From a virus: a stretch of DNA of 31,911 bases. Below the pieces are notes generated by a model, which had not been told where the DNA came from, made no database searches, and saw nothing but the letters and a program-made list of their open reading frames with translations. The stretch lies in IMG/VR virus record IMGVR_UViG_3300045988_123119, one strand, 5' to 3'. Every line of letters starts with the position of its first letter. Positions within the stretch are counted from its first letter, which is position 1. Positions 1 through 29,849 of this stretch are shown here, piece after piece. Both the position numbers and the translations under genes were made by a program.

Positions 1-60
1 CTCCGATTATTGCCCAGCTTATCGGGCAACTTGCACCTGTTTTGGCTCAGATTATTTCAG
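1..60. repeat. Terminal overlap identical to 31852-31911, marking circular closure of the assembly
   Basis: Direct reading shows the 60 nt at the two window ends are identical. The overlap lies inside one continuous ORF. Confidence 0.9.
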
Positions 61-3361: not shown

Positions 3362-4451
3362 TGATTTTTGGCGCGGGCGCTTCAAAGCGTCGTATCGATT
3401 CATGCGCGTAGATAGGCGCACCGGGCTCGAAACGGGCAGAGTTGGAAATATCACGGGTGGAACGATCACGCGTAATCAGGACACGTCCGTGTACGAGACC
3501 GCAAACATCGATTACGTTGGTTCTCTCGATATCGGTACCGACCTTCTGCGCATCTACCTCGACGCGGAATCTACGAACGGCAATGATTCGCGCACGGTTG
3601 CGCTCGGAACGTTCCTAGTGTCTACTCCATCCATCGATATTGACGGTACTAAGCGAAGCGGTACGGCAGACCTCTACGGGCGCCTGCGAGAGCTTGCAGA
3701 CGATGATTTCGACACGGCATACCAGGTGGATGCGGGCGAAAACGCTGTGGCGAAAGCTGCCGCAATCGCCCGCGCTTCCGGGCTTGCCGTTGTGGCAGAC
3801 CCATCCACGTATACGCTCACTGCATCTTGGACGTTTGGCGTTTCGGGCGGCTCTGATTCAGTATCCGACAAGCTCAGCGCCATTAACAAGCTGCTCGATG
3901 CTGCCGGATTCAACGCTGCGTATACCGACCCCATGGGACGCGTTATCATGAGCCGTTACACGGCGCAGGAGAAACGCCCTCTTGTGTGGGATTTCGCAGA
4001 GGGCGAGGGCTGCCACGTCTTGCCGCAGGCGACTGACGAGCTAGACCGCCTTGCAATCTCGAATGTTGTTCACGTCGATTACACCACGCAGGAATCGAGC
4101 GTGCGCGGCACAGCTGTGGATGATGACCCCGATAGCGAATGGTCTACGGTGAGTGTCGGGCGGCGAATCGTCAAGAGCTATAGTTACAGCTCATTGCCGG
4201 AAGGCACGACAGAGAGCCAGGCGCAAGCGCTGGCCAACGCAAAGGCGCTCGAACTGCTAAAGAGCGCGCGATCAATCTTGCGACGCGTGACCTTCACGAC
4301 GATGTATGTACCGGTCAACGTTGGCGATGCTCACGGATTCGAATCATCCACTCTCAAAATCAATCGCAGGTACGCAGTTCGAAAAATCGACATCAGCCTA
4401 AAGGCTGGTTGCCCAATGAAAATCGAATCACGCAATTTCGGAGAGGTGTAA
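3354..4451 (+). CDS. Tail tip/baseplate protein (Tal-like minor structural protein)
   Basis: GGGAGGAG RBS lies 7 nt upstream. The gene overlaps the previous gene by 8 nt. It is the second gene after the tape measure gene. The call is based on position and general composition only. Confidence 0.45.
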   Translation: MADDFWRGRFKASYRFMRVDRRTGLETGRVGNITGGTITRNQDTSVYETANIDYVGSLDIGTDLLRIYLDAESTNGNDSRTVALGTFLVSTPSIDIDGTKRSGTADLYGRLRELADDDFDTAYQVDAGENAVAKAAAIARASGLAVVADPSTYTLTASWTFGVSGGSDSVSDKLSAINKLLDAAGFNAAYTDPMGRVIMSRYTAQEKRPLVWDFAEGEGCHVLPQATDELDRLAISNVVHVDYTTQESSVRGTAVDDDPDSEWSTVSVGRRIVKSYSYSSLPEGTTESQAQALANAKALELLKSARSILRRVTFTTMYVPVNVGDAHGFESSTLKINRRYAVRKIDISLKAGCPMKIESRNFGEV

Positions 4452-5060
4452 ATGATGGATTTGCTTACGTCTGCCATGGATGCGGGAGCGGCGCTTGCGG
4501 AGACGTTCAGCAAGCCTGTGAACACCGGGGCTAGCTTCACGCGCTACGGCACCGTGGTCAAAAACAACGGCACGACGCTCGATGTTGAGCTTTGCGGAGC
4601 TACGCTCGCGGCAGTGCCGATGCTCACGACGTGCGCGGGCGCGAAAGCGGGCGATAGGTGCTTGCTCACTGTGGATGGGCCGCTTGCGACTGTCACCGGC
4701 ATACTCGCAAACGCAGATAATGCGCATTACGTAAACCGCTTGATGGAATATGTCCCCTGGACGGTGCTCTACGGAAGCATCGACGAAGACTGCGTTAGAT
4801 ATATGGTCTCCGGTGGGATGGTGACGCTCTCCGTGCGCCTCCGCGTCACGACAAGCGGTATGACCGTGCCGTCCATGCCTGCTCGATACAGGCCAAGCAT
4901 GTCGATGTACCTCTCGTCATACTTCTACGGCAGCAACAACGTGATGGGTGCGTGGGTCCCGAGCAGAAGCAATGACAGTATGCCAATCTACCTCTACGAC
5001 CTCGCGTCCGGCGCGGGCAATCTCCTCTCGTCCTCGTGGTCGTGGCCACTGGAGCCCTAG
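4452..5060 (+). CDS. Tail fibre / receptor-binding protein, with a constant N-terminal part and C-terminal tip domain 1
   Basis: GAGAGG RBS is present and the gene abuts the previous stop. The C-terminal half shows a head-domain-like pattern (MVTLSV...MP..YRP...G.W...) that is also seen in the opposed ORF 5057..5398. Confidence 0.55.
   Translation: MMDLLTSAMDAGAALAETFSKPVNTGASFTRYGTVVKNNGTTLDVELCGATLAAVPMLTTCAGAKAGDRCLLTVDGPLATVTGILANADNAHYVNRLMEYVPWTVLYGSIDEDCVRYMVSGGMVTLSVRLRVTTSGMTVPSMPARYRPSMSMYLSSYFYGSNNVMGAWVPSRSNDSMPIYLYDLASGAGNLLSSSWSWPLEP
4710..4734. repeat. Left arm of an in-frame inverted repeat (candidate recombination crossover site)
   Basis: AACGCAGATAATGCGCATTACGTAA matches the reverse complement of 5338-5362 (AACGGCGATAGTACGCATTACGTAA) at 21/25 positions. 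The perfect 12-nt core CGCATTACGTAA is at 4723-4734. The arm encodes NADNAHYV. Confidence 0.8.
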
Positions 5061-5398
5061 GCCACGCAAAACGTTAATGACCCGCCCAAATACGAATTGT
5101 TAGTAGAGCTGACGATCTCTATAACGCCTTTCGGGCTAATGCCTATTTGACCGAAAACGTTAGTACCCATGATTACGCAAACGCCGGTAACACGAATAAC
5201 GGGCCTAACGCCATCCGGTAATGTTGCTAAAATGCCGGTCTTACTCCATCCGAAAGATACAGTGACCATGCGCCCGATCTTCTCATATTTGAAGTATCCG
5301 GGCACGTCGTTAGTTCTGTCGTTGCCGTAGAAATACCTTACGTAATGCGTACTATCGCCGTTCGGGTACCGCGCCCGCACAATCCAATATAAACCCAC
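5057..5398 (-). CDS. Inverted ORF encoding a second tail-fibre tip-like domain, a candidate alternative C-terminal cassette
   Basis: It is the only minus-strand ORF inside the late operon. It has a GTG start with no Shine-Dalgarno sequence and lies only 16 nt from the next + gene. It shares the stop tetranucleotide CTAG with gene 4452..5060. Its product shares NGDSTHYV and a MVTVSF...LP..VRP...G...I pattern with the + gene. The region is visibly more A/T-rich, about 45% G+C in my hand count of 120 nt against about 57% in a 60-nt sample of the upstream gene. Confidence 0.5.
   Translation of the reverse strand: MGLYWIVRARYPNGDSTHYVRYFYGNDRTNDVPGYFKYEKIGRMVTVSFGWSKTGILATLPDGVRPVIRVTGVCVIMGTNVFGQIGISPKGVIEIVSSTNNSYLGGSLTFCVA
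5338..5362. repeat. Right arm of the in-frame inverted repeat
   Basis: TTACGTAATGCGTACTATCGCCGTT is the reverse complement partner of 4710-4734. It encodes NGDSTHYV on the minus strand, in frame with ORF 5057..5398. Confidence 0.8.
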
Positions 5399-5414
5399 GT
5401 GAAAGGAGCATTAC

Positions 5415-5855
5415 ATGCTTACAGGCACTATGACAAACGGAAGCGTCATATTGACCACCACTGGCGGGGTGCCGATTGTCGAAAGCACGGCGCCCGGGAA
5501 TATCCCGGCTGGCTATCACGCCCAAATGGGATTCGTCAATAACGGTACCCAAATCGTTCAGACGTGGACGGTCGCGCCGGACGTTGGCACCGTGACGGAC
5601 GCTGCGGCGACGCTCGCTCAGATGCAGGCCGCGTCTCTGAGCGACGATGACGCGCTCAAGGTTCCCGCGTTATTCCCAGAGTGGGAGAGCAACGGCCATT
5701 GCTACGCGCAAGGAGACCGCGTTGTATATCATGGCAAGCTGTACAAGTGCCTGGCCGCGCACACGTCCAGCGACACGGTGGCGCCAGGTGAATCCCCTCA
5801 GAGGTGGGCGGCTGTCTTGCCCTCCACATCCACCGATACGGACGTGGAGGAATAG
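5415..5855 (+). CDS. Tail-associated protein with a C-terminal CBM5/12-type carbohydrate-binding repeat
   Basis: GAAAGGAG RBS lies 6 nt upstream. The motif W-x6-Y-x2-GD-x-V-x-Y-x-G-K-x-Y-K-C-x4-H-T-S...W closely resembles chitin-binding CBM5/12 modules. Confidence 0.7.
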   Translation: MLTGTMTNGSVILTTTGGVPIVESTAPGNIPAGYHAQMGFVNNGTQIVQTWTVAPDVGTVTDAAATLAQMQAASLSDDDALKVPALFPEWESNGHCYAQGDRVVYHGKLYKCLAAHTSSDTVAPGESPQRWAAVLPSTSTDTDVEE

Positions 5856-8887: not shown

Positions 8888-9124
8888 ATGAATGATACCA
8901 CGACGTTCGCGGACATGGCCCGCGAGCTGGGATTACCCAAGAAGCCGCTCTATTCGGTCAAGGAGGTCAGCAGGGTGCTTGGCGTGCCGTGCTCAACCGT
9001 CTACGACGAGATGAAGTCTGGACGACTGAGATACCAACTGCCGCCCGGGCGCAAGTACGGGCAGCTTGTGAAACCCGAATGGGTGGACGCTTTGATAGCG
9101 GGAGGTACACATGACCAAAGTTGA
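8888..9124 (+). CDS. Excisionase/MerR-like HTH_17 DNA-binding protein
   Basis: GGAGG lies 8 nt upstream of the ATG at 8888. The motif YSVKEVSRVLGVPCSTVYDEMKSGRL is typical of the Xis/AlpA-like HTH family. Confidence 0.65.
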   Translation: MNDTTTFADMARELGLPKKPLYSVKEVSRVLGVPCSTVYDEMKSGRLRYQLPPGRKYGQLVKPEWVDALIAGGTHDQS

Positions 9125-10074: not shown

Positions 10075-10683
10075 ATGGGAGTACCTGTTTTGATTCTCGG
10101 CCCTTCCGGTAGCGGCAAGACGTATTCACTGCGGAATATCCCGGCGAATAAATACGGGCTTATCGAGTGCGAAAAAACCATGCTTCCGTTTCGCGGTGGC
10201 GTTAAGTTCGCCCGCACGAAGGATTTCGGCGAGCTGCGCGGCATCATCAAGGCATATAGCGAGCGATACAACACCGTGGTTGTCGATGATTTCGGTTACT
10301 GCGTAACTGATTTGTTCATCCATCACATCAACGACCGTGACCAATACGGCATCTATAAAACGATTGCCGCCGAGGTTTACAACACTACTGAATTTATCAA
10401 CGCTCTGCCTGAAAACGTCATCGTCTTCATCACGATGCACACGGATTCAGACGCTTTCAACAACATCGTCCCGAAAATCATGGGCAAGATGGTGAACGAG
10501 AAAATCGACCTGCTGGGCATGGTCAACGTTTGCATTCTCTCTGAGGTGGTGGACGGTGAGCACGTTTTCATTTTGGACGGCAAACCGCCCGCGAAGAGCT
10601 GCGGAATCTTTTCAGAGCCGGTGATACCGAATGATTTGGCGGTTGTCGAGAAGGGCATCCGCGACTTCATCAGCGGTGAGTGA
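10075..10683 (+). CDS. Sak4-like / AAA_24 RecA-fold ATPase (single-strand annealing protein)
   Basis: Walker A GPSGSGKT and Walker B VVVDDFG are present. The protein is about 200 aa, and GGAGGGGG RBS is present. Confidence 0.7.
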   Translation: MGVPVLILGPSGSGKTYSLRNIPANKYGLIECEKTMLPFRGGVKFARTKDFGELRGIIKAYSERYNTVVVDDFGYCVTDLFIHHINDRDQYGIYKTIAAEVYNTTEFINALPENVIVFITMHTDSDAFNNIVPKIMGKMVNEKIDLLGMVNVCILSEVVDGEHVFILDGKPPAKSCGIFSEPVIPNDLAVVEKGIRDFISGE

Positions 10684-10688
10684 TCGCA

Positions 10689-10901
10689 ATGTCGATTGAG
10701 CCTGGCAAGGCGAGCCGAATGATGGAGCTTTGCGAAGGCAGATACCAACAGTTGATACAAGGCGGTTGCGATTCAGACGTGGCGGCAGACCGAGCCTATG
10801 ACGCGCTTCGCGCTGCGTTCGGCGAGGTCGAGCACGCATACGACAAGCGCGATCGCCTGTTTGAGAACAAGCTACGAAGCGTAGCGGAAAGGAGCGCATA
10901 A
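10689..10901 (+). CDS. Hypothetical protein
   Basis: The ATG at 10689 has GGTGAG 8 nt upstream. The gene is tightly packed in the operon. Confidence 0.5.
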   Translation: MSIEPGKASRMMELCEGRYQQLIQGGCDSDVAADRAYDALRAAFGEVEHAYDKRDRLFENKLRSVAERSA

Positions 10902-11458
10902 TGCGCACGAACATCCCATGGGCAACGACCGAGGCGAGCACGGACGGCGGTTTTGAGAAGCTTCCCGCAGGGCCTTATGTCGCAAAGATTGTCGATATGG
11001 TCGATAACGATTCCAAGCAGTACGTAGAGCTTGTATTCGACATCGCAGAGGGCGAGCACGCCAATTTCTACGGCGATAAGTGGGGCAAAGAGCATCCGTT
11101 CGCACATCATATCTTCCTGAGCTACAAGGACACGGCACTAGGCATGCTCAAAGGCCGCTTGCAGGCCATCCAGGAGAGCAACCCTGGATTCGACCCGTTC
11201 GCCGCGTGGGACGCTGGCCGCTTGGACATGTTCAACGGGCGAATCCTGGGCATCAACCTTCAGGAAGAGGAATACGAGCGCAACGACGGCGAGACCGGCA
11301 CGCGCCTGACCGTATGCCAGGTTATCCCGGCTCAGGACGTGCGCGACGGCAAAATCAAGGCGCGCGACATCAAGAAGCTCAAAGGTTGTGCGGCTTCTAC
11401 CTCCACGACCGTAACGCCCGTGGTGGAGGCGTACAACGGCCCCATCCCGTTCAACTAA
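10901..11458 (+). CDS. DUF669-like protein, a putative SSB-like partner of Sak4
   Basis: It lies next to the Sak4-like gene. The C-terminus ...NGPIPFN resembles the SSB acidic-tip IPF motif. The protein is about 185 aa. Confidence 0.5.
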   Translation: MRTNIPWATTEASTDGGFEKLPAGPYVAKIVDMVDNDSKQYVELVFDIAEGEHANFYGDKWGKEHPFAHHIFLSYKDTALGMLKGRLQAIQESNPGFDPFAAWDAGRLDMFNGRILGINLQEEEYERNDGETGTRLTVCQVIPAQDVRDGKIKARDIKKLKGCAASTSTTVTPVVEAYNGPIPFN

Positions 11459-11470
11459 ATCAGGTGAGCT

Positions 11471-11986
11471 GTGATTATCGAGGACACACGGCAACAAGAG
11501 CTGAAACACGGGCACATAGAAAAATGGATGGTGGCCCATGGCGTTGATTTCGCGCCTAGGGCCACCGCTTTACCATTCGGCGATTACATGCTCGAAGGCT
11601 CTAACATCTCCATCGACACGAAAAAGGACGTGCAGGAGGTGGCCGGGAATCTCGGCAAGCAGCACGCACGCTTCTCACGGGAGTGCGACAAGGCGCGCGC
11701 CGAGGGCTACCGCCTTATTATCCTGGTCGAAGAGCATCCAGAGTACAACGATCGCAAGAAGCTGCGTGCTTGGAAAAGTTATGTCTGCCGACGTTGCCGA
11801 AAATGCAACCCGTTCGAGAAGAGCAGCAAATGCGCCAAGTATCGGGTGAAGCCGATGAACGGTAACAGCATTGCAAAGATTATCGAACGGATGGAAGAAA
11901 ACCACGGCGTTCGCTTCGAGTTCTGCCATAAGCTGGACACAGCGCGGCGCATATGCGAGATTTTGGGGGTGAAATACAAGGAGTAA
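11471..11986 (+). CDS. ERCC4/Hef-Mus81-like nuclease (putative structure-specific endonuclease or resolvase)
   Basis: IIEDTRQ, FGDY and IDTKKDVQE motifs resemble the ERCC4 GDxn-ERKxxxD signature. GTG start with AGGTGAG RBS. Confidence 0.5.
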   Translation: MIIEDTRQQELKHGHIEKWMVAHGVDFAPRATALPFGDYMLEGSNISIDTKKDVQEVAGNLGKQHARFSRECDKARAEGYRLIILVEEHPEYNDRKKLRAWKSYVCRRCRKCNPFEKSSKCAKYRVKPMNGNSIAKIIERMEENHGVRFEFCHKLDTARRICEILGVKYKE

Positions 11987-14160
11987 TGGACGAATCGAAT
12001 CTTTCAGCTCTAGGCAAGGCGGCGCTTGAATACGTTCGCGCCGGTTTCGCCGTCTTCCCGTGCCGTGAGAGGGACAAGAGACCGGCCACACCGCACGGGT
12101 TAAACGACTGGACGGATAACCCTGAGCACGTGATTATCCACTGGTCACAACATCCAAACTCGAATATCGGAATCACGTGCGGCGCTCCATCTGGCGGGCT
12201 GCTTGTACTCGATTTCGATGTTAGCGACACGAAAAACGGCCTTGCCACGTTGAAGCAGTGGGAAACCGAGCACGGGGAATTGCCCGAGACGGCGACGGCT
12301 ATCACGGGCAGCGGCGGCAGGCACTACCTTTTCCGCACAGACCGCAATAACATCCGCCCCACGTCCAATACCGAGCTTGGCGTGGACGTGCGATGCGATG
12401 GGTCATACATCGTCGCGCCCCCGTCCATCCATCCCAGTGGTGGTAGTTACGAATGGTGGGCATCGCCTGAAGATGTCGGAATCGCGAGCGCGGACGGCAA
12501 CGTCTACGATTTACTCGATTACATCCAGCGCAACGGAGGTAGCGAGGAAGGCTCACACAAGGAAAACGGCAAGTTCAGATTGCCCGATACGATCAAAAAG
12601 GGCGAGCGTGACAACATCCTCTTTAAGTACGCCTCGCACTTGCGAAGCATTGGCCGCTCAGATGATGAGATTCTAACGACGGTCGCAGGCGCCAACGCGA
12701 TGTTATGTAAACCGCCTATGGATTCATCTGACATCAAGCGCATTTGCAGGAGCGCATGCAAGTACGAGCAGGGGAGCGGCGTTAGCGATAGCGACGGCAA
12801 GGCCGTCGGAGCGCCCGGGAAGAAGCCCGCCGATACGGAGGGGCTGCGAGGGCCGCGCGGCGGAATCCTCACCAATAAAGTTGCTCAGGGGATCATTGAA
12901 AACAACCTTGCGCGAATCATCGACGGCGCGCCCGCTGTCTGGACTGGCAAGCGCTGGGACTTCGGGCCGCGCGCCATCAATCGCTGCGTGCTCGATTTGG
13001 TGGATGATGCGAAGAAGAATGATAAGAGCGAGGTCGTTAGCTACATCATGGACAAGGCCCCATCGGTAGCGAGCGATAGGGCTTTTGACGGCGGCTATTA
13101 CGTGCAGTTCTCTAACTGCACATACGACGTTCTGAAAGATGAAATTATTGACCCCACCCCGGAGATGTTTATTATCGCCCAATTACCGGTGGCATTAAAC
13201 ATGGATGCGCCACGCAACAAGGCAGACGAGTTTCTCGAATCCATCAGCAACGGCGATGAGGACACTCTGCAAGCGATGAAGGAGGTCATAGGGGCCTGCA
13301 TGTGCTCAAGGCGCGTGCTCAGCCAATCGCCCATGCTCATAGGCAGGGCGGGCGGCGCGAGCGGCAAGGCGAGCAACGGCAAGTCTACCTACCTCAACTG
13401 GCTGCGCTCGATACTCGGGGTTGAGAACGTCTCTAGCTTGGATATCGCCACGCTTGGACAGCGATTCAACGCTTCCCGCGTGGTGGGCAAGCTGGCGAAT
13501 CTCGGCGACGATATCCCGGACGGATTTCTGCGTGGTGATGAGCTGTCGATGTTTAAGAAGATCGTCACGGGCGATTCTATTTTTACCGACGTTAAGAACG
13601 GCGAGGGCTTCGAGTTCAGACCCAGCGCGAGCATGGTCTTTTCGATGAATGCCGTTCCGCGCCTTTCGGACACCACGGACGGCGTTTTCAGGCGCCTGGC
13701 CTTCATTCCCTTCAGGAAACGCTTTTCACCCGGTATGCCCGACTATGACCCCAATATCTCGCAGGAATTGAAGCAGCAGGAAGTGCTAGAGCGCGGCGCG
13801 CTGCTTGGCCTTATGGCGCTTGGCGATTTAATCAGGCGCGGCACCCTTACGCCAATCCCAGACATGGTGGCAGAGGTGAAGCAGGTAAAAGAAGACAACA
13901 ATTCAGTTGTGAGATGGATTGCCGATTGCGCTATTACCGCCGAGACGCTTAACGGCAAAACGGTGCCTGACACTTACAACGACTACAAGCGTTGGTGCGA
14001 GGACTGCGGAGAGCGCTCACCGTTCACCCGTAAAACATGGACAGCTGTTGTCAAAGATTCTGTGACGATTGAGAATTCTGGATTGCCACAACTTGATACA
14101 AAATCCGCTCGATTACTTGATAACTCAAGTAAATTTGTCCGAATATGGACGATTTTGTGA
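11986..14160 (+). CDS. Bifunctional primase-polymerase (Prim-Pol N-terminal domain) fused to a D5/P4-type SF3 helicase
   Basis: N-terminal AVFPC...KRP...HG...D.. and LDFD motifs are present. A central P-loop (GKASNGKST) and C-terminal P4-family primase-helicase features follow. The ATG at 11986 overlaps the previous stop. Confidence 0.8.
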   Translation: MDESNLSALGKAALEYVRAGFAVFPCRERDKRPATPHGLNDWTDNPEHVIIHWSQHPNSNIGITCGAPSGGLLVLDFDVSDTKNGLATLKQWETEHGELPETATAITGSGGRHYLFRTDRNNIRPTSNTELGVDVRCDGSYIVAPPSIHPSGGSYEWWASPEDVGIASADGNVYDLLDYIQRNGGSEEGSHKENGKFRLPDTIKKGERDNILFKYASHLRSIGRSDDEILTTVAGANAMLCKPPMDSSDIKRICRSACKYEQGSGVSDSDGKAVGAPGKKPADTEGLRGPRGGILTNKVAQGIIENNLARIIDGAPAVWTGKRWDFGPRAINRCVLDLVDDAKKNDKSEVVSYIMDKAPSVASDRAFDGGYYVQFSNCTYDVLKDEIIDPTPEMFIIAQLPVALNMDAPRNKADEFLESISNGDEDTLQAMKEVIGACMCSRRVLSQSPMLIGRAGGASGKASNGKSTYLNWLRSILGVENVSSLDIATLGQRFNASRVVGKLANLGDDIPDGFLRGDELSMFKKIVTGDSIFTDVKNGEGFEFRPSASMVFSMNAVPRLSDTTDGVFRRLAFIPFRKRFSPGMPDYDPNISQELKQQEVLERGALLGLMALGDLIRRGTLTPIPDMVAEVKQVKEDNNSVVRWIADCAITAETLNGKTVPDTYNDYKRWCEDCGERSPFTRKTWTAVVKDSVTIENSGLPQLDTKSARLLDNSSKFVRIWTIL

Positions 14161-21396: not shown

Positions 21397-22834
21397 GGTA
21401 TACCACGATGGCGCCGTCGCCTATAGCGAGGTTGACGACGCGGTAGCCCTCGGCGAAGACCTCGGTATCTCGCCCTTTCCATGGCAGCGCCACATCTTGA
21501 CGGACTGGTGCGCGTGCAGCGCGGACGGAAAGCCCGCCTATGTGACGTGTGGACTGGACGTGCCACGTCAGAACGGCAAGAACGCGGCGCTCGAAATCTA
21601 CGAGCTTTACCGACTTGCGGTCTGCGGATGGCATATCCTCCACACCGCCCACCGCGTGAAGACCGCCAAGAAAGCGTTTATGCGCCTCGTGCGCTACTTC
21701 ACCGATGAGCGCCACCCCGAGTTGTGCGAGCTGGTTGAGCGCATTCGCCGAACGAATGGCGAAGAAGCAATTTTCCTGAAAAACGGCGGCTCAATCGAGT
21801 TTATCGCCCGCACGAACGGAACGGCGCGTGGTTTCGACGATATCCAGCTGGTCGTGTACGACGAAGCCCAGGAGCTTACCGACACCCAGTACGACGCAAT
21901 AGCCTATACGCTGGCTGCATCGTCAACGGGAGAGCGCCAAATCCTGTACATGGGAACGCCTCCCAATGAGCGGAGCGCCGGAACCGTGTTCGCCCGCGTG
22001 CGCAAGTCCGTCCTAGAGGGCGGAATGCGGCGCATGTGCTGGGCATCGTGGGCTTGCGAGAAGCTCCCGCCCAAGGACTGCACGTTCGCCGACATCCTGG
22101 ATGAGATCTATCTATCCAACCCATCCATGGGATATGTGCTGGATGAGGGTTACACCGAAAGCGAGTTTGCGGGAGCAAAGGGAAATATCTCAGGTTTTGC
22201 CCACGAGCGCCTGGATTGGTGGAGCGGTTCGAGCAGCGCGAGCGCAATAGACGAATCGCTTTGGCTGTCTTTGGCTATCCCGCGCTCGCAGGTGCCCACA
22301 GAGGGCAAGAAGACCTTCGGCGTGAAGTTCTCCCCGGACGGTAGCCAAATCGCGCTGTGTGCTTGCAGATTGAGCGATGAAGGCAACGGATACGTTGAGC
22401 ATATCGGGCAAGGCACTTTGGCTGACGGCCTTTCCTGGCTTACTGATTTTCTCTGCACCGACGATATGGCCGATACCACAGCAGCCATTGCAGTGGATGG
22501 GCGGAACGGCGCTGCTGCGCTTCTCGACCGCTTGCGCGAGTATTACCCGCGCCAAGCCCTCTTTTCCACCACCACCAAGGACGTTATCAACGCAACGACG
22601 CTGTTCTCGCAAGCTCTTATCGATAAGACGTTGACACATTGGGACGGCGGCAAAGACAATGCGCAGCAGGCATTTAACGCAAGCGCGCTCGAAGCCCGCA
22701 GGCGCCCGATTGGCTCAGAAGGTGGATGGGCATACGGCGGCGATTCGTCCACACCGATAGAAGCGGCCGTTATCGCATACTGGGCCGCAAAAACGACAAA
22801 ACGCGACCCTGACGGGGGATGTGTGATTCTATGA
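21323..22834 (+). CDS. terL: Terminase large subunit
   Basis: Walker A-like VPRQNGKN and Walker B VVYDEAQE are present, followed by a C-terminal nuclease region. GTG at 21323 has AGGAGG 6 nt upstream but overlaps terS by 74 nt. The alternative GTG at 21368 has no RBS. Confidence 0.85.
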   Translation: MAQSKQASSPSSLETVRRGRQEPRRVYHDGAVAYSEVDDAVALGEDLGISPFPWQRHILTDWCACSADGKPAYVTCGLDVPRQNGKNAALEIYELYRLAVCGWHILHTAHRVKTAKKAFMRLVRYFTDERHPELCELVERIRRTNGEEAIFLKNGGSIEFIARTNGTARGFDDIQLVVYDEAQELTDTQYDAIAYTLAASSTGERQILYMGTPPNERSAGTVFARVRKSVLEGGMRRMCWASWACEKLPPKDCTFADILDEIYLSNPSMGYVLDEGYTESEFAGAKGNISGFAHERLDWWSGSSSASAIDESLWLSLAIPRSQVPTEGKKTFGVKFSPDGSQIALCACRLSDEGNGYVEHIGQGTLADGLSWLTDFLCTDDMADTTAAIAVDGRNGAAALLDRLREYYPRQALFSTTTKDVINATTLFSQALIDKTLTHWDGGKDNAQQAFNASALEARRRPIGSEGGWAYGGDSSTPIEAAVIAYWAAKTTKRDPDGGCVIL

Positions 22835-24264
22835 CGAACGATAACCCTACGCTTTATCAAGTTGACCCGTCAATGATGAATCTGACGGGCGAGGAGGTAA
22901 GCGTATTCAACGCCCTTTTGGCTGAATGGCAGAGCCATATAGGCTCGAACATTCGCAATGAAGCCTATTACAAAGGCAAGGTGAAGCCGGTTACGACAGA
23001 CACGTCCATGCCAAAAGACCTGGTTAACCTAAACATTGTTATGGGCTGGGGCGGAAAATGCGTCGACGTTCTCGCTAATCGCTCCGTTCTCGCCGGATTC
23101 GATGGCGAAAACGCCGACGCGATGGCGGATATCGTGACGCTTGACAGCCTTGTCGAGATTTACGAGCAGGCGGTAACGTCTGAGCTTACGGATTCGTGCG
23201 CGTTCCTGACCGTCTCTAAGGGCCTTGCAGGTGAACCGGATGTGATCGTGTCGGCGCACTCCGCGCTCGACGCGGCGGCTATCTGGGACGAGCGCAAGAA
23301 GCGAATCAAGGCGGGTATCTGCGTCGTTGATATCGACGTTGATTCGAGCGGGCTGCGCGTGCCTACGTGGGTAAACATGTACACTGACGAATACACGTAT
23401 TCGTGCCGTAAGGTTGACGATTCCTGGATTGCCGAGAAAGTGGCAAACCCGTTTGGCCGCCCGCTCATGGAGCCCTTGCGATACCGTCCGTCTTTGACGC
23501 GCCCGTTTGGCAAGTCGCGCATTAACCGCACCGTTCGCAGCCTGATTGACCGCGCGCTGTGCGTTGGCGCTCGAACTGAAATCGCAGCTACATTCTATAC
23601 GTGGCCGCAACGCTACCTGTTAGGCGTTGACAAGAAGACCGCCGAGAGCATGAGTAAGCGCAAGGTTGAAATGTACGCTGATTCGATGCTGCTTGTCACG
23701 CCGAATAAAAACGGCGATGTCCCGCAGCTCGGGCAGCTATCGCAGATGACCATGCAGCCTCATATTGACCACTTGGAGATGCTTGGCAAGCAGTTTGCGA
23801 GCGAGGCGTGCATACCGCTGGATGAGGTGGGAATCGTCTTCGATAACCCCACATCCTCCGAAGCTATGTTTGCGGCGCAGCAGCGCCTTATCGTCGAGGC
23901 GGAGCACGTCAATCGCATGAACGGAATCGCGCTCGGCAACATCGCGCGAATGGCGCTAGGTGCCGTCGATGCTGCGGATTTCGCCACGGCAGACATCACG
24001 CCGCGTTTCGCCGATGTGTTGCGCCCGTCCAAGGCGGCAAACGCAGATTTCGCTATCAAGGTCAATTCCGCAGTTCCGGCCTATTCAGGCACACGCCAAT
24101 TTTGGAGAGACCTGGGCTATTCCGAATCCAGCATCGATTCGATTCTGCGCGACGTGCGATATACGCAAATCGTGCAGGCGGCGGCGCAGGCATCTGCTCA
24201 GGTTTCACAACAGCAGGCTACACCGCAGGCAGAAGGCATAAGCAATGCAGATACCAGCGAGTAG
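22831..24264 (+). CDS. Portal protein (SPP1 Gp6-like)
   Basis: ATGA overlap with the terL stop. The 477-aa size and position support the call. Confidence 0.8.
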   Translation: MTNDNPTLYQVDPSMMNLTGEEVSVFNALLAEWQSHIGSNIRNEAYYKGKVKPVTTDTSMPKDLVNLNIVMGWGGKCVDVLANRSVLAGFDGENADAMADIVTLDSLVEIYEQAVTSELTDSCAFLTVSKGLAGEPDVIVSAHSALDAAAIWDERKKRIKAGICVVDIDVDSSGLRVPTWVNMYTDEYTYSCRKVDDSWIAEKVANPFGRPLMEPLRYRPSLTRPFGKSRINRTVRSLIDRALCVGARTEIAATFYTWPQRYLLGVDKKTAESMSKRKVEMYADSMLLVTPNKNGDVPQLGQLSQMTMQPHIDHLEMLGKQFASEACIPLDEVGIVFDNPTSSEAMFAAQQRLIVEAEHVNRMNGIALGNIARMALGAVDAADFATADITPRFADVLRPSKAANADFAIKVNSAVPAYSGTRQFWRDLGYSESSIDSILRDVRYTQIVQAAAQASAQVSQQQATPQAEGISNADTSE

Positions 24265-26018: not shown

Positions 26019-26909
26019 ATGGCTGAAGGCATCAACAAGACCTCTATCACTCTTCCCTCTTCCGTCTCTTCCGAGATTTGGGCAAAGACGCTCGAAAGCT
26101 CCGTAATCATGCAGCTCGCTCAGCGTATCGACCTCCCCGGCAACGGCCTTACCATCCCGGTTATCACCGGTGAGCCTGCCGCCGATTGGGTCACCGAGAC
26201 CGAGGACAAGCCCGTATCTCAGCACACCCTCTCCACCAAGGAGATGAAGGGCTACACCCTGGCTATCATCGAGCCGTTCTCTAACCAGTTCCGAGACAAC
26301 ACCGAGGCGCTTTACAACGAGCTTGTCTCCCGCCTGCCGTTCGCTATCGCAAAGAAGTTCGACGAGACCGTCATGTTTGGCACCGCCCCCGGTACCGGCT
26401 TCGACACCCTCAAGGACGTGACCAACGCCGTAGACGCATCCACCAAGACCTATGACGCATTCGTCGATGCGATCGGCAAGGTTGCCGAGAACGACAGCGA
26501 CCTCAACGCCTTCGTCCTCTCCCCGCAGGCAAAGACCCTGCTTCTGAAGACCAAGGACACCACTAACCGCCCGCTGTTCATCAACAACGTTCAGACGGAC
26601 GGCGCCGTGGGCCACGTGCTTTCCGTCCCCACCTACTTCACCAAGTCCGCGCACAAGGCAGCCGTTTCTTCCGGCAATAAGGCGGTTGAGGTTCTTGGTT
26701 TCGGCGGCGATTGGAGCGCAGCCCGTTACGGCGTGGTCAAGGACGTTAATATCTCCATCTCTGACCAGGCCACCCTTACCAGCGGTCCTAAGACGCTCAA
26801 CCTGTGGCAGCGCAACATGTTCGCAGTCCGCTGCGAGTTCGAGGTTGGCTTCGTTATCCGCGACGTTAATGACTTCGTGCGCATCGACAACGGCACCGCT
26901 TCTGCCTAG
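26019..26909 (+). CDS. Major capsid protein (HK97 fold family)
   Basis: AAGGAG RBS is present. The 296-aa size, the position after the scaffold gene and the composition are typical of HK97-family major capsid proteins. Confidence 0.85.
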   Translation: MAEGINKTSITLPSSVSSEIWAKTLESSVIMQLAQRIDLPGNGLTIPVITGEPAADWVTETEDKPVSQHTLSTKEMKGYTLAIIEPFSNQFRDNTEALYNELVSRLPFAIAKKFDETVMFGTAPGTGFDTLKDVTNAVDASTKTYDAFVDAIGKVAENDSDLNAFVLSPQAKTLLLKTKDTTNRPLFINNVQTDGAVGHVLSVPTYFTKSAHKAAVSSGNKAVEVLGFGGDWSAARYGVVKDVNISISDQATLTSGPKTLNLWQRNMFAVRCEFEVGFVIRDVNDFVRIDNGTASA

Positions 26910-26921
26910 GAGTGATTCACT

Positions 26922-27308
26922 ATGGCTATCAAGGCATTTGCTACACCCGAGGAATACACGGCGGCATATGGCGCGGTAGCCGACGAGAAGCGGCTCGAAG
27001 CGCTGTTGCTTCGCGCAACGGGCTACCTTCTCGGCAAGATGGACGGGTATACGGCGGGTGTGGACGAGGTGCTAGACCTCAACGCCTCCACGGTGTGCAT
27101 GGCAATGGTCAATCGCGCGCTCTCCACGCCTGCCGGGCTTTCCGGCGTATCGCAGTATTCGCAGACAGCGGGCGGTTACACGGCTTCCGTCTCGCTGCTC
27201 GACCAGTACATGCGCCCCCTTCCATCTGAGCTTGATTTGCTCGGGCTTTCTTCCGGCGCGGTTCTCTCATGCCGGATGATGGCGGGTGAGCGCAATGAAT
27301 CTGATTAG
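26922..27308 (+). CDS. Head-tail connector (gp6-like adaptor)
   Basis: It is the first gene after the major capsid gene. The 128-aa size and helical N-terminus with an LLL.A...L pattern support the call. Confidence 0.6.
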   Translation: MAIKAFATPEEYTAAYGAVADEKRLEALLLRATGYLLGKMDGYTAGVDEVLDLNASTVCMAMVNRALSTPAGLSGVSQYSQTAGGYTASVSLLDQYMRPLPSELDLLGLSSGAVLSCRMMAGERNESD

Positions 27309-27636
27309 CGGCGTTGCTGTTGAGGTCTTGCGGCGAACTGCCGCTAGTAAGGATTCGCACGGTAACGCTGTGCCTGGCAGATGGATGGCTGAAACCGTCG
27401 AAAACGTCTTGCCGCAGCCCGGCTCGACGAGCGACCTCGAAGCTTCTAGGCCGGACGGCGTAAAGGTTGCGATGACCTTCCATTTTCCGAAAACATACGA
27501 GCAGGCTTTGCGCGGTTGCAGGGTCAAATACCTAGGAGCCGAGTATGCGGTTATCGGAGACCCGCAACCGTACCTAAACGCAAATTGCCCGGGCGATTGG
27601 AATCGCACGGTTGAATGCGAGGTGTGCAATGGGTAG
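27295..27636 (+). CDS. Head closure protein
   Basis: The call is based on position. The ATG at 27295 has GGGTGAG 5 nt upstream. Confidence 0.5.
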   Translation: MNLISGVAVEVLRRTAASKDSHGNAVPGRWMAETVENVLPQPGSTSDLEASRPDGVKVAMTFHFPKTYEQALRGCRVKYLGAEYAVIGDPQPYLNANCPGDWNRTVECEVCNG

Positions 27637-27922
27637 CGGATTCACGTTGAAGATGAAGCTAAAAGGCCGCGTGAAGCACGTAGACAGTGGCGTTGTCTCC
27701 ATCACGAAGAGCGACGGCGTTACTGGGATGCTCTACAAGCAGGGCGCTGGGTGTGCTGCGCGCTGCAATTCTCTGGCAAGCCTTCCGCGCGGGCACCCCG
27801 AATACGACGTGCAGGTAAAGCCGTTGAGTTGGTGCAACGGCGTTCGCGTCGGCGTTGCCAATGCTGACGCTTATATCGACAACCTGCGCAACAACACGCT
27901 TAAGAAAGGTTGTGGCATCTGA
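27629..27922 (+). CDS. Neck/tail-attachment protein (HK97 gp10-like by position)
   Basis: The ATG at 27629 has GAGGTG upstream and overlaps the previous stop. Confidence 0.4.
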   Translation: MGSGFTLKMKLKGRVKHVDSGVVSITKSDGVTGMLYKQGAGCAARCNSLASLPRGHPEYDVQVKPLSWCNGVRVGVANADAYIDNLRNNTLKKGCGI

Positions 27923-28269
27923 TGTTCGACGTTATCGCCGCAACCTGCGCGGCGCTCGAAAAGGGTCTGGGCGTTCCGTCCAGCTCTATTGTCCCAGCAG
28001 ACCGACCGCAGCGCTTCACGACGGTTGAGCGCACGGGCGGCGGCTACTCGCTTTGCCGCGACGTGCCCAACCTCGCCGTGCAGTGCTGGGCGGAAAGCGA
28101 GGCGGAGGCATACACCCTCGCACTCATGGCGCGCGAGGTGCTGACCAACATGCGCGAGACCTGCCCGAACGTCTGCTCAAGCTCCGTGGGCGGTATTTAC
28201 AGCTTCCCGGACCCCGATAGCAGGTGCTACCGTTATCAACTCGATTTCATGGCCGTTACGAGATCGTAG
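27922..28269 (+). CDS. Tail terminator / tail completion protein
   Basis: ATG/TGA overlap at 27920-27924. It is the last gene before the major tail gene. Confidence 0.45.
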   Translation: MFDVIAATCAALEKGLGVPSSSIVPADRPQRFTTVERTGGGYSLCRDVPNLAVQCWAESEAEAYTLALMAREVLTNMRETCPNVCSSSVGGIYSFPDPDSRCYRYQLDFMAVTRS

Positions 28270-28299
28270 CGGTTTTCTTTTTTAGAAAGGATTAGCAAA

Positions 28300-28908
28300 A
28301 TGGCTGAAAACATGCTTGACTCTTCTAACGTCGGTATCGCCAAGGGCCGTGAGGGCGGTTATGCTTGCGTTGCTCCCGCCGGAACTGACCCCACTGCTTT
28401 TATCGATATGAAAAAGACCCTTGCAGATTTCTGCAAGGAATCTGGCGCCGTGCTCAAATCCCTTGGTTACATCTCCGAGGATGGCGTTACCATTACGACC
28501 GATACCGACACCGACGATAAGACCGATTGGAGCGGCGTGACCATCGTCTCGCCCATGACCTCTTATTCCGAGGGCGTTGAGGTGACTTTCCTTGAGGCAC
28601 GCGACACCGTGCTCAAGACCGTTTACGGTGACGCTAACGTCACTAATGACAGCGAGGGAACCACGACCGTGCGCCATAACAAGAACTTCACCGGCGCCCA
28701 CCTCTTCATCTTCGATGCTGTCGTATCCGACACAAAGGTTAAGCGCGTCGTTATCCCCAACGGCGTTATCACTGAGCGCGACGATCAGGAAATGAATAAC
28801 TCCGACCTCGCCGGATACACGCCCACCATCAAGTGCCTGCCGTCCGATTTCTTCGATGGCGACTGCATGCGTGAGTACATCTACGACACGACCACTGTTG
28901 CCGCCTAG
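28300..28908 (+). CDS. Major tail protein
   Basis: AGAAAGGA RBS is present. The 202-aa size and the position upstream of the G/GT chaperone genes and the tape measure gene support the call. Confidence 0.8.
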   Translation: MAENMLDSSNVGIAKGREGGYACVAPAGTDPTAFIDMKKTLADFCKESGAVLKSLGYISEDGVTITTDTDTDDKTDWSGVTIVSPMTSYSEGVEVTFLEARDTVLKTVYGDANVTNDSEGTTTVRHNKNFTGAHLFIFDAVVSDTKVKRVVIPNGVITERDDQEMNNSDLAGYTPTIKCLPSDFFDGDCMREYIYDTTTVAA

Positions 28909-29012
28909 GCTGTAACTACCGCTTTCCGCATGGAGGGCGGCAACGGCGGCTTTGGTAGTAGGCGCTAAAGCCGTCCTTACCGTCCTCCGTGGGCCTACCG
29001 AAAGGATTGAAA

Positions 29013-29429
29013 ATGAATATCGAGGATATGACCCCTGAGCAGCTCCGCGAGTACGCCACCGAAAAGGAAATGCAGCGCGAGACCATTACGGCGCGTTACA
29101 TGGACCGTGAGCCTAGGTTAAGCGTCGTCCCTGACGATAAGCAGCCATATGAGAACGATATCGAGTTTGAGGGCGAGACGTACCGAATCGATATGCGCCG
29201 AATCAAATCCCGCGAGTTCATCCGCATGTTCGCGAAGTTCCAGGATTACGAGCGCACGGACGAGGACGCTCCGATTTCGTGCGCCCTGGCGCTCTATGAC
29301 TTCGTGTTCGGCGGCAAGGTGGATGACAAGGTGTGCGAAGTCGTTAAGGCCAAGATGGGTTATGAGGACTTCGAAGAGATTATGCGCATCGAAAACGAGC
29401 TGTTCAACCACCTCGAAGTAAAAAACTAG
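29013..29429 (+). CDS. Tail assembly chaperone (gpG-like)
   Basis: The product is acidic. The gene lies between the major tail and tape measure genes and ends just after a slippery heptamer. Confidence 0.8.
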   Translation: MNIEDMTPEQLREYATEKEMQRETITARYMDREPRLSVVPDDKQPYENDIEFEGETYRIDMRRIKSREFIRMFAKFQDYERTDEDAPISCALALYDFVFGGKVDDKVCEVVKAKMGYEDFEEIMRIENELFNHLEVKN

Positions 29430-29839
29430 CGGCGCTCGCCCCGATTCTTCTTGATTATCGGGACGAGCTCACCGCAGATTTCCAGCAGTATTACCAGCTG
29501 GATTTAAACGCGATGATGGATGCTGGGCGCTTCGCGGCAATTGCGACTTTTACCGCGCAGCTCCCGGCGCAATCGCGCACCTTTATACGCCTACACCCAG
29601 AGCTGGAATGGGATGAGAGCACCTACCTGCTTGCACTCATCGTAGACCAGCTAGCAAACATCTCCTATGGCCTGGGCGGCGGCAAGGGCAAGAAGCCGAA
29701 GCCGATTCCTAGACCGAAGGCGAAGAAGAAGAAAAAGAAGAAAACCCATCTCAACGTGGATAAGGCGAGAATCGACGCGCTTCTATTCGGCGCTCGCTCC
29801 CCATCCATTGCAAAAGAGGTGGGTGAGGAAGGCGAATAG
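29013..29839 (+). CDS. Tail assembly chaperone G-T fusion made by a -1 programmed frameshift at 29420-29426
   Basis: The -1 frame is open from before 29402 through 29839. It reads ...KKLAALAPILLDYRDELTADFQQYYQLDL..., continuous with track ORF 29513..29839. Confidence 0.75.
29420..29426 (+). promoter_or_regulatory. -1 ribosomal frameshift slippery heptamer A_AAA_AAC
   Basis: It fits the X_XXY_YYZ pattern in the zero frame (GTA AAA AAC TAG), immediately before the gpG stop. Confidence 0.75.
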
Positions 29840-29849
29840 GGGTGATTAA

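Follow-up and report, generated by a model that had tools for sequence, protein, structure and literature searches.

The 31,911-nucleotide (nt) viral DNA recorded in IMG/VR as IMGVR_UViG_3300045988_123119, hereafter called the window (the whole stretch that was analysed, at its full length), carries between positions 4452 and 5398 two opposed open reading frames (ORFs) with a pair of short inverted repeats. An initial annotation, made from the letters alone, had proposed that this locus is an invertible tail-fibre tip cassette. In this work we have analysed the locus together with its counterparts in related phages and prophages, showing that inversion at the sites is real and recurrent among the relatives. 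We propose, with a probability of about 0.55, that the locus is a recombinase-less switch of receptor-binding protein (RBP) heads, or shufflon, in a siphovirus of Collinsella, which is run in trans and most likely by the host proteins XerC and XerD.

In the proposed mechanism the codons of the linker between the two domains of the RBP would form a 28-base-pair (bp) mimic of dif, the chromosome-dimer resolution site, and a second copy of the site would lie 0.6 kb downstream, inverted, ahead of a promoter-less alternative head. Recombination within the 6-bp centres of the two sites would invert the intervening segment, so that the constant domain would continue in frame into the other head and the first head would be parked behind a stub. 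Catalysis would be provided in trans, the tyrosine recombinases XerC/XerD of the host being the most likely source. Related phages and prophages appear to follow the same site logic with two or three sites, other heads and other constant proteins.

Inversion of alternative receptor-binding heads

The plus-strand ORF (4452-5060, 202 amino acids, aa) and the minus-strand ORF (5057-5398, 113 aa, GTG start) end tail-to-tail on a shared CTAG at 5057-5060. The inverted repeat (4710-4734 and 5338-5362) is complementary at 21 of 25 positions (84%) and includes a perfect 12-nt core, CGCATTACGTAA, which with up to one mismatch allowed occurs at two places only in the window (chance expectation 0.24; two or more occurrences in 3 of 100 shuffled sequences). 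Both arms of the repeat are in frame and encode N-(A/G)-D-(N/S)-(A/T)-H-Y-V. The region of the minus ORF is lower in G+C (0.465-0.51 over 5100-5399, vs 0.55-0.63 in its neighbours), and the ORF itself lacks a Shine-Dalgarno sequence and leaves only 16 nt between its start (5398) and the next plus-strand gene (5415). The sequence features listed in the initial annotation were all recovered here. No promoter-like or terminator-like site has been found in 4300-5700, and free-standing expression of the minus ORF has been rejected, an argument made from sequence, on the grounds that it has neither a promoter-like site nor a ribosome-binding site and that the next gene is so close. The 7-bp stem noted earlier across the shared stop codons (5041-5047 / 5060-5066) is present, yet it is no better than in shuffled sequence. 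As a candidate bidirectional terminator it gave z of -0.8 and -1.0 against shuffled sequence, has no T-run and is not conserved, and in two relatives (L003 and L044) the stop codons lie 80 nt apart, which disrupts it. Because its z-scores are near those of shuffled sequence and the relatives carry the 80-nt insert, the stem is regarded as a probable product of chance. The insert itself (L003 2531-2612, L044 3639-3720), which the window does not have, encodes a C-terminal remnant (...PPHLLAMNIWRRVA followed by a stop codon) resembling the end of a third head type (P0086, ...PPFLAVNIWRRVA, with a match to PF21939) and looks to be what is left of a third cassette since lost.

The cassette is organised as follows.

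4452-5060, plus strand: predicted RBP gene as now expressed, with constant N-terminal domain, linker and head 1 (202 aa; from the ORF, homologues, AlphaFold2 (AF2) models and Foldseek)
4452-4709, plus strand: constant part of the RBP, aa 1-86, which stays put on inversion (collinear at 89-94% identity with L001, L012, L016, L017 and L019 up to the L site)
4710-4737, plus strand: L site, 28 bp, dif-like; arm AACGCAGATAA at 4710-4720, centre TGCGCA at 4721-4726, arm TTACGTAAACC at 4727-4737
4727-5345, no strand: invertible segment between the two centres, with head 1 (plus) and head 2 (minus), each with its own XerD-type arm (inverted in L003, flanks collinear)
4738-5060, plus strand: head 1 coding region (NRLMEYVPW...SWSWPLEP), found as fusions in relatives; beta-sandwich in the AF2 model
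5057-5334, minus strand: head 2 coding region (RYFYGNDRTN...LTFCVA), silent here; found as fusions in relatives and modelled in P0053
5335-5362, minus strand: R site, 28 bp, dif-like; XerC-type arm AACGGCGATAG at 5362-5352, centre TACGCA at 5351-5346, XerD-type arm TTACGTAAGGT at 5345-5335
5363-5398, minus strand: stub of 12 codons, VGLYWIVRARYP, with GTG start, upstream of the R site; conserved in relatives as MGLYGILQAQYP and MGLYGIVGARYP

In the L site, AACGCAGATAA is the XerC-type arm and TTACGTAAACC the XerD-type arm, and the site encodes N-A-D-N-A-H-Y-V in the interdomain linker. The stub overlaps the upstream region of the next plus-strand gene. Also present is a second inverted repeat (4920-4938 / 5317-5335, 19 nt, 84%), whose two arms encode YFYG(S/N)N at differing places, one in the later part of head 1 and the other right where head 2 begins.

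Across homologues of the 202-aa protein the N-terminal ~94 aa are 94-99% identical and end in TGILANADN(A/T)HYV, and among the relatives at least 12 unrelated C-terminal domains of 85-110 aa follow this part. The AF2 models of the window protein and of P0053, which combines the constant domain with head 2, consist of two beta domains with a low-confidence linker at aa 90-104, which in the window protein spans aa 91-100, and the repeat falls exactly in this interdomain linker. The best Foldseek matches of the RBP were lactococcal phage RBPs (TP901-1 ORF49, bIL170 and p2), and Listeria phage PSA gp15 was matched as well. Head 2 in the P0053 model matched the TP901-1 RBP head (ORF49/BppL) with E of 2e-5 for 2f0c, and with a target-normalised TM-score of 0.67 and a root-mean-square deviation of 2.7 Å for 4ios_A. 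Compared by Foldseek on AF2 models, both of the tips postulated earlier have the RBP-head fold. These matches to lactococcal phage RBPs indicate that the gene encodes a predicted small siphovirus RBP with a TP901-1 BppL-like head, and that the two tips are probably alternative receptor-binding heads; the heads may differ in receptor specificity. Diversification by a diversity-generating retroelement (DGR) was considered as a concept and rejected, as whole heads of unrelated sequence are exchanged, not point variants.

Both heads have been found in both states. The constant domain continues into head 1 in the window, P0002 and L044; in P0003/L003 head 1 occupies the silent position, on the stub. 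Expressed fusions of the constant domain with head 2 occur in L017, L019/P0053, L003 and P0076, and head 2 is silent in the window, L012, L020, L021, L041 and L044. The fusion that had been predicted to arise by inversion, constant aa 1-94 followed by RYFYGNDRTN...FCVA (187 aa), has a close natural counterpart, with 177 of 187 residues identical to the RBP of prophage L017 (Collinsella sp. CM84Y_54) and 174 of 187 to P0053. An in-silico flip between the repeat centres leaves two intact ORFs, and its reciprocal product, the stub plus head 1 (128 aa), is identical to P0003 at 110 of 128 positions.

The flipped arrangement, which the initial annotation had suggested looking for in related phages, was found in L003 relative to the window and L044 and in four further independent flip pairs. 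With respect to L003, window segments 4710-5067 and 5059-5362 are inverted at 93% and 92% identity, both flanks are collinear, and the breakpoints lie exactly at the repeats; between L003 and L044, the latter having the window arrangement, a single uninterrupted block of 737 nt is inverted (93.9% identity). L012 is inverted relative to L019 and L017 (91.6% and 94.6%), the L012-L019 flanks being collinear at 91% and 90%. L016, L031 and L032 are flipped relative to L018, and L004-L007 relative to L034/L035, where the interior is 99.24% identical in inverted orientation and the right flank 99.25% identical and collinear. Most flip pairs are 88-94% identical overall. In L004 8860-8921 (also in L005-L007), compared with the expressed copy in L034 (10206-10260), the silent head D carries a 2-nt indel right after the XerD-type arm and is out of frame with the site, which may represent a decaying cassette or a recombination scar (L004-L007 being the integrated-prophage form).

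The remaining pair consists of L037 and the end of contig L042 (IMGVR_UViG_3300045988_132015). At its end (9020-9104) this contig repeats its own RBP constant region over 85 nt in inverted form. The match to the reverse complement of that region is 79 of 79 nt as far as the centre of the repeat, and the copy is attached to the head that L042 keeps silent. If both orientations were present in the reads, a palindromic assembly path such as the L042 end would result, which suggests that both orientations may coexist in one sample; two co-occurring strains could give the same picture, so that the palindromic end is suggestive and falls short of proof. Contigs L002, L028, L030 and L036 likewise end at, or within ~50 nt of, a site, and in gut virome assemblies such loci may be expected to break contigs or to yield palindromic ends.

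Architecture of the dif-like sites

The repeats are part of larger, 28-bp dif-like sites, each with a 6-nt centre flanked by a XerC-type and a XerD-type arm of 11 nt. In the alignment of all sites the layout is aacgcaGATAA-T[G/A]CGCA-TT[A/C][C/T]GTAA for the window L site and aacggcGATAG-T[A/G]CGCA-TT..GTAA for the R site. The dif of Frankia alni is CACGCCGATAA-TGCACA-TTATGTCAAGT, that of Escherichia coli GGTGCGCATAA-TGTATA-TTATGTTAAAT and that of Bacillus subtilis ACTTCCTAGAA-TATATA-TTATGTAAACT (PMC3025954).

For scoring, a 22-nt weight matrix was derived from 38 actinobacterial dif sites (supplementary table of PMC3025954, in which Coriobacteriia are absent), and in arms-only scores the central six positions were neutralised. 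Among the 63,780 positions on both strands of the window, the L site ranks first with the full matrix (19.1 bits) and the R site second (7.7 bits), the next score being 3.6 bits. Scored on its arms, the L site reaches 16.7 bits, equal to or above the real dif of E. coli (15.9 bits) and B. subtilis (16.7 bits) on this actinobacterial matrix; the R site reaches 9.8 bits (P about 4.5e-6 per position), and real actinobacterial dif 23.7-31.1 bits. Related loci with other centres give arms-only scores of 20-27 bits in a second lineage (CCGATAA-CGGCCC-TTATGTC/A), whose best sites (24.5 and 26.8) fall inside the range of real dif, and of 19-25 bits in a third (GCGATAA or CCGATAA, followed by CGGCGC-TTATGTGAA). 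Elsewhere in the window, an arms-only match at 23024-23045 on the minus strand (CCCATAA-CAATGT-TTAGGTTAA, 15.5 bits), inside a 481-aa ORF (22819-24264) taken as the portal gene, has no partner site and is probably due to chance. Exact 19-nt copies of GATA(A/G)TACGCATTACGTAA at L008 9699-9717 and L009 1145-1163 were also rejected as probable chance matches, being located in unrelated AT-rich IMG/VR contigs with no inverted partner.

The flip pairs make it possible to place the exchange within the site. In every pair the bases to the left of the centre (GATAAT vs GATAGT), i.e. the XerC-type arm, remain with the flank, and those to the right (ACGTAA, CTGTAA, ATGTTA; TTACGTAA, TTCTGTAA, TTATGTTA), i.e. 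the XerD-type arm, move with the head, so that exchange occurs within about RCGCATT. The crossover is thereby mapped to the 6-bp centre with a resolution of about 7-8 bp. Five centre alleles were observed (TGCGCA, TACGCA, CACGCA, CGGCCC and CGGCGC), and the partner sites have identical centres in 24 of the 27 distinct loci counted across the site tables. The three exceptions, the window, L019 and L044, each differ at position 2 only (G vs A), the position at which the dif centre varies most among Proteobacteria (PMC2731167). The combination of conserved arms with a centre that varies between lineages but is matched between partners is the signature to be expected of tyrosine-recombinase sites. 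The same rule emerged from experiments on Acinetobacter plasmids, in which segments are inverted by pXerC/D pairs and the 6-nt central spacers of active pairs are identical (PMC9947245).

The mosaic boundary at the L site, together with the variety of constant proteins found beside it, suggests that this site also marks the place where heads pass between genomes. Two otherwise unrelated types of constant domain are almost the same over the final ~43 nt ahead of the junction, and the second type (MDLARDEETRV..., in L003, L034, L037 and L042) has only these ~43 nt in common with window 4452-4690. Between L004 and L034 the identity is 99.2% on the right side of the L site, and on its left side the two are unrelated. 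In the third lineage, with centre CGGCGC, the same silent head and sites stand behind different constant proteins:

L045 2088-4835, minus strand: 915-aa Prophage_tail (Tal-like) protein
L046 1944-3443, minus strand: 499-aa protein
L047 1781-2281, minus strand: small RBP of 166 aa

The dif-like linker apparently works as a universal joint to which heads can be attached. Loci with three sites, two direct and one inverted and all with centre CGGCCC, occur in a more distant lineage, the cassettes of which occupy differing positions across L025, L030, L036 and L038. In L038 (10263-11208), L030 and L036 one site overlaps, in direct orientation, the stop codon of the expressed RBP, and in L025 (2436-3409) the second and third sites are both inverted. 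Such a three-site locus is a predicted small shufflon, in which the direct-repeat arrangement would risk deletion of the expressed head.

Genome context, candidate enzyme and alternative explanations

The 60-nt terminal direct overlap of the window (1-60 = 31852-31911) shows that it represents a complete circular genome, in which the unique sequence amounts to ~31.85 kb at 56% G+C. The tape-measure gene crosses the ends of the window (29,8xx-31911 plus 1-1205) and encodes ~1,088 aa once joined. It is followed by genes for a 718-aa FN3-containing tail protein, a 365-aa tail protein and the 202-aa RBP, then by the minus ORF, the CBM5/12 gene, a CHAP endolysin gene and a replication/recombination module (Sak4-like AAA_24, SSB-like, ERCC4-like, Prim-Pol/D5 helicase, dUTPase and methylase), and further on by HNH, terminase, portal and capsid genes. 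All genes except the minus ORF are on the plus strand. The gene next to the cassette is the following:

5415-5855, plus strand: next late gene, encoding a CBM5/12 carbohydrate-binding protein (Pfam CBM_5_12, E of 3.6e-10)

This gene forms the right-hand constant flank of the switch and is collinear with its counterparts in the relatives whichever the orientation of the cassette; in the relatives an r1t-type holin gene lies between it and the lysin gene. Three genes of the phage's own recombination functions, at 10075-10683, 10901-11458 and 11471-11986, encode a Sak4-type AAA_24 protein, an SSB-like protein and an ERCC4-like nuclease, which could process Holliday junctions or aid exchange at short homologies.

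The host genus is Collinsella (Actinomycetota), as prophage L017 resides in the isolate Collinsella sp. CM84Y_54 and its constant domain is 97% identical to that of the window; the locus is also present on two contigs of Collinsella metagenome-assembled genomes. Among GenBank phage records no match was obtained by megablast (12 kb) or by tblastn (both proteins), and exact look-ups found neither of the window's own two products on record. The phage family appears to mix temperate and integrase-less genomes. L004-L007, L017, L038 and L041 run into host genes and are temperate relatives; L004 (10722-16579), L017 (14728-20282), L038 (13825-20549) and L041 (13523-20609) are prophages that enter host genes directly after the lysis module, at differing chromosomal places. 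In L034 a 441-aa ORF after the lysin gene (12719-14047) has a weak Phage_integrase (tyrosine integrase) match in Pfam. The same sites are present in the genomes that have no integrase, namely the window, L012 and L019.

The initial annotation had stated that the genome encodes no recombinase and that any switching would need an enzyme from elsewhere, and both statements have held. Pfam, PHROGs and NCBIfam were searched with the plausible ORFs of both strands, among them antisense ORFs of at least 150 aa and small unknown ORFs, over the window other than the short structural ORFs at 26,900-29,840, and no serine or tyrosine recombinase emerged; the counterparts of those structural ORFs in L012 contain no recombinase family among their precomputed Pfam matches. 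A hidden recombinase was thus rejected as a candidate, the scans having given only Sak4-like, SSB-like, ERCC4-like, Prim-Pol/D5, methylase, dUTPase, HNH and terminase proteins. No recombinase gene adjoins the cassette in L004, L012, L019, L038 or L041 either. Since the complete genome contains no recombinase that the scans could find, the enzyme would have to be supplied in trans, and it is highly probable that RBP heads are switched at this locus, or were until recently, by site-specific inversion with an enzyme so supplied. Switching may be ongoing in the window genome.

Because the sites are dif-like, host XerC/XerD are the most economical candidate, and the chance that they are the enzyme is, in our estimate, slightly better than even. 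XerCD with a dif site have been predicted in 66 of 66 actinobacterial genomes (PMC3025954); no dif sequence of Collinsella was found in the literature. We attach even odds to the wider proposition that this Collinsella siphovirus family, its integrase-less and temperate members alike, has handed host-range switching to the dimer-resolution machinery of the host, with in-frame dif mimics being inverted by XerC/XerD and the same sites moving heads between unrelated constant tail proteins and between co-infecting genomes.

Several points weigh against an Xer-driven switch in the window. XerCD acting at dif normally needs FtsK at the septum, and no phage-encoded Xer activator such as XafT was recognised. 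The full-matrix scores of 19.1 and 7.7 bits compare with 30-41 bits for real actinobacterial dif, so the window sites are only dif-like, and the comparison itself rests on other actinobacteria, from which the dif of Collinsella may differ. The XerC arm of the R site is degenerate (GATAG, not GATAA). The centres of the two sites, TGCGCA (L) and TACGCA (R), differ by one base at position 2, and on this account the switch could be slowed or locked, so that the window genome might switch slowly or not at all. As the site overlaps the conserved motif TGILANADN.HYV, part of its conservation may reflect constraint on the protein. Finally, the tyrosine integrase of temperate relatives, as represented by the weak Pfam match in L034, could in principle act in trans; there is no dif-like third site near this integrase gene, so that its attP appears to be different.

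The last point leads to a broader alternative, in which the same RBP-head switch is worked by another tyrosine recombinase in trans, be it a dedicated invertase of the host or, from a co-resident related prophage, an integrase or a Rin-like invertase, and the resemblance to dif reflects shared Xer-family ancestry. Many of the relatives are Collinsella prophages, one of them with the L034 ORF behind its lysin gene; Rin tyrosine invertases drive RBP shufflons in prophages of Bifidobacterium and Eggerthella (PMC6109161, PMC8778435), and invertases that act globally are known from gut bacteria, as far as the citation of Mpi in PMC6109161 goes. What such an enzyme would leave unaccounted for is that the sites match the phylum-specific dif arms CCGATAA and TTATGTCA/TTATGTAA at 6-bp spacing, two lineages being as good as real dif. 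Moreover, the rix sequence TTCCCTAACCC is absent from the window, the L034 integrase gene has no dif-like site beside it, and no Rin-like gene flanks the cassettes examined (L004, L012, L019, L038 and L041). We consider this explanation unlikely, while granting it some weight.

Inversion might also proceed with no site-specific enzyme, by homologous recombination or replication template switching at the short repeat, maybe with the help of the Sak4-, SSB- and ERCC4-like proteins that the phage encodes, the repeat being kept for its linker peptide only. The repeat does lie in coding sequence, on a conserved peptide, and the shared identity always includes CGCATT, so that microhomology would place the crossover at the same point. 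Against this, perfect identity between the arms extends over only 8-12 nt, which is very short for such recurrence, and the R site is conserved though it lies outside any expressed protein. Homology alone does not predict the 11-6-11 dif architecture or the top rank in the genome, nor that three lineages keep the arms while the centres of both partners change together. The sites are moreover shared by constant proteins of 915 aa, 499 aa and about 200 aa that are unrelated to one another. This route is very doubtful.

An equally improbable reading, that the arrangement in the window genome is static, the minus ORF being a decayed or separately expressed paralogue and the flipped relatives the outcome of rare ancient events or module exchange, would suit the one-base difference between the L and R centres, the out-of-frame silent head of L004-L007 (a 2-nt indel near the site, by which cassettes can decay) and the 88-94% overall identity of most flip pairs, but it is opposed by at least five independent flip pairs, one of them 99.2% identical apart from the inversion, by the contig end of L042 that joins a silent head to its own constant region, by the intactness of both heads as ORFs with confident RBP-head models, and by the want of a ribosome-binding site or promoter for the minus ORF.

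If the Xer-driven switch proposed here is true, it would be the first case in which a tailed phage makes use of Xer and the first in which a structural protein undergoes Xer-driven phase variation. An essential and universal pair of host enzymes could then do the work, and receptor specificity could be diversified even by a 32-kb phage that lacks a recombinase. The very sharp boundary between the constant and variable parts of these RBPs would be explained, and paired inverted dif-like sites inside tail genes would provide a simple signature by which host-range switches hidden in metagenomic phages could be found. For the engineering of switchable RBPs, a design that is portable and enzyme-free would also be suggested.

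Comparison with known inversion systems

Phage host-range switches operating by DNA inversion have been known since Mu and P1. To our knowledge, in every characterised inversion switch the phage supplies its own invertase, and one recombinase-less locus was reported earlier and left unexplained. The initial annotation had likened the window locus to the G segment of Mu, and part of this likeness stands: as in Mu G, P1 C and p15B Min, inversion takes place between short in-frame inverted repeats at the constant/variable boundary, the alternative C-terminus is promoter-less and located on the opposite strand, and a host-range switch is the presumed outcome. The parallel in mechanism does not stand, given the 11-6-11 dif layout, and neither does that in the gene, which is predicted to encode a small RBP and not a long tail fibre. 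Mu, P1 and p15B have an adjacent serine invertase gene (Gin, Cin, Min), a Fis-dependent enhancer, 26-bp sites with a 2-bp crossover and a second, chaperone gene that is inverted as well. The window differs in having no serine invertase that was found (no match to the Resolvase or Recombinase families in the scanned window ORFs, nor next to the cassette in L004, L012, L019, L038 and L041), in sites that fit an 11-6-11 layout with exchange within a 6-8 bp centre, in having no chaperone gene inverted along with the heads and in its short siphovirus RBP.

The Rin shufflons are nearer in gene and host, since they too join a constant RBP N-terminus to alternative TP901-1-like heads by inversion in phages of gut Actinomycetota (PMC6109161, PMC8778435), and in the multi-site ones the expressed gene carries a second site, in direct orientation, at its 3' end, a feature also of L038. 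They differ in encoding their own armless tyrosine invertase beside the cassettes and in their rix sites, TTCCCTAACCC or ttccgtat (PMC6109161, PMC8778435). No rin tyrosine invertase gene was present in the scanned window ORFs or in the flanks of the relatives, and the Bifidobacterium rix sequence had 0 matches in the window at up to one mismatch.

The closest published case is the recombinase-less inverted locus of the Bifidobacterium prophages Bb423phi2/689b-1 (Mavrich et al. 2018, PMC6109161), which is inverted between relatives at a short repeat with no flanking recombinase and for which the authors proposed an invertase acting in trans. As in the window, the short inverted segment comprises a small gene and the 3' end of its neighbour, and the host is a gut actinobacterium (PMC6109161). 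In that locus the crossover is the 8-bp CAGGGTTA, and no enzyme candidate, site architecture or gene function was identified (PMC6109161); this octamer is missing from the window cassette, its single match in the window being far off at 12117-12124. The window has 28-bp putative dif mimics, a gene predicted to encode an RBP, and many heads and lineages documented.

As to mechanism, the pXerC/D (pdif) pairs of Acinetobacter are also 28-bp dif-like sites on a mobile replicon without a recombinase of its own, and inverted pairs of them reversibly invert the DNA between them (PMC9947245, PMC5790767). They belong to plasmids of Gammaproteobacteria, carry resistance-gene modules and lie between genes, whereas the window sites are in frame inside a phage structural gene, where inversion would rewire the protein. 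The integrative mobile elements exploiting Xer (IMEX), namely the phages CTXphi, VGJphi and TLCphi, likewise have no integrase and have dif-like sites used by host XerC/XerD, as outlined in PMC4246890 and PMC9226527. On the same account Xer serves these phages, which are filamentous or satellites, to integrate at chromosomal dif; the window phage is tailed and would invert a segment of a structural gene. In the literature surveyed no report was found of Xer- or dif-driven inversion of phage RBP or tail-fibre genes. What is new here is the putative in-frame dif mimics with matched centres, which provide a specific and testable mechanism. The closest mechanistic analogues are the pdif (pXerC/D) modules and the Xer-exploiting IMEX phages, and the exploitation of Xer, if the proposed switch is true, would reach beyond integration, as in IMEX, and beyond the shuffling of plasmid modules to protein-level phase variation in tailed phages.

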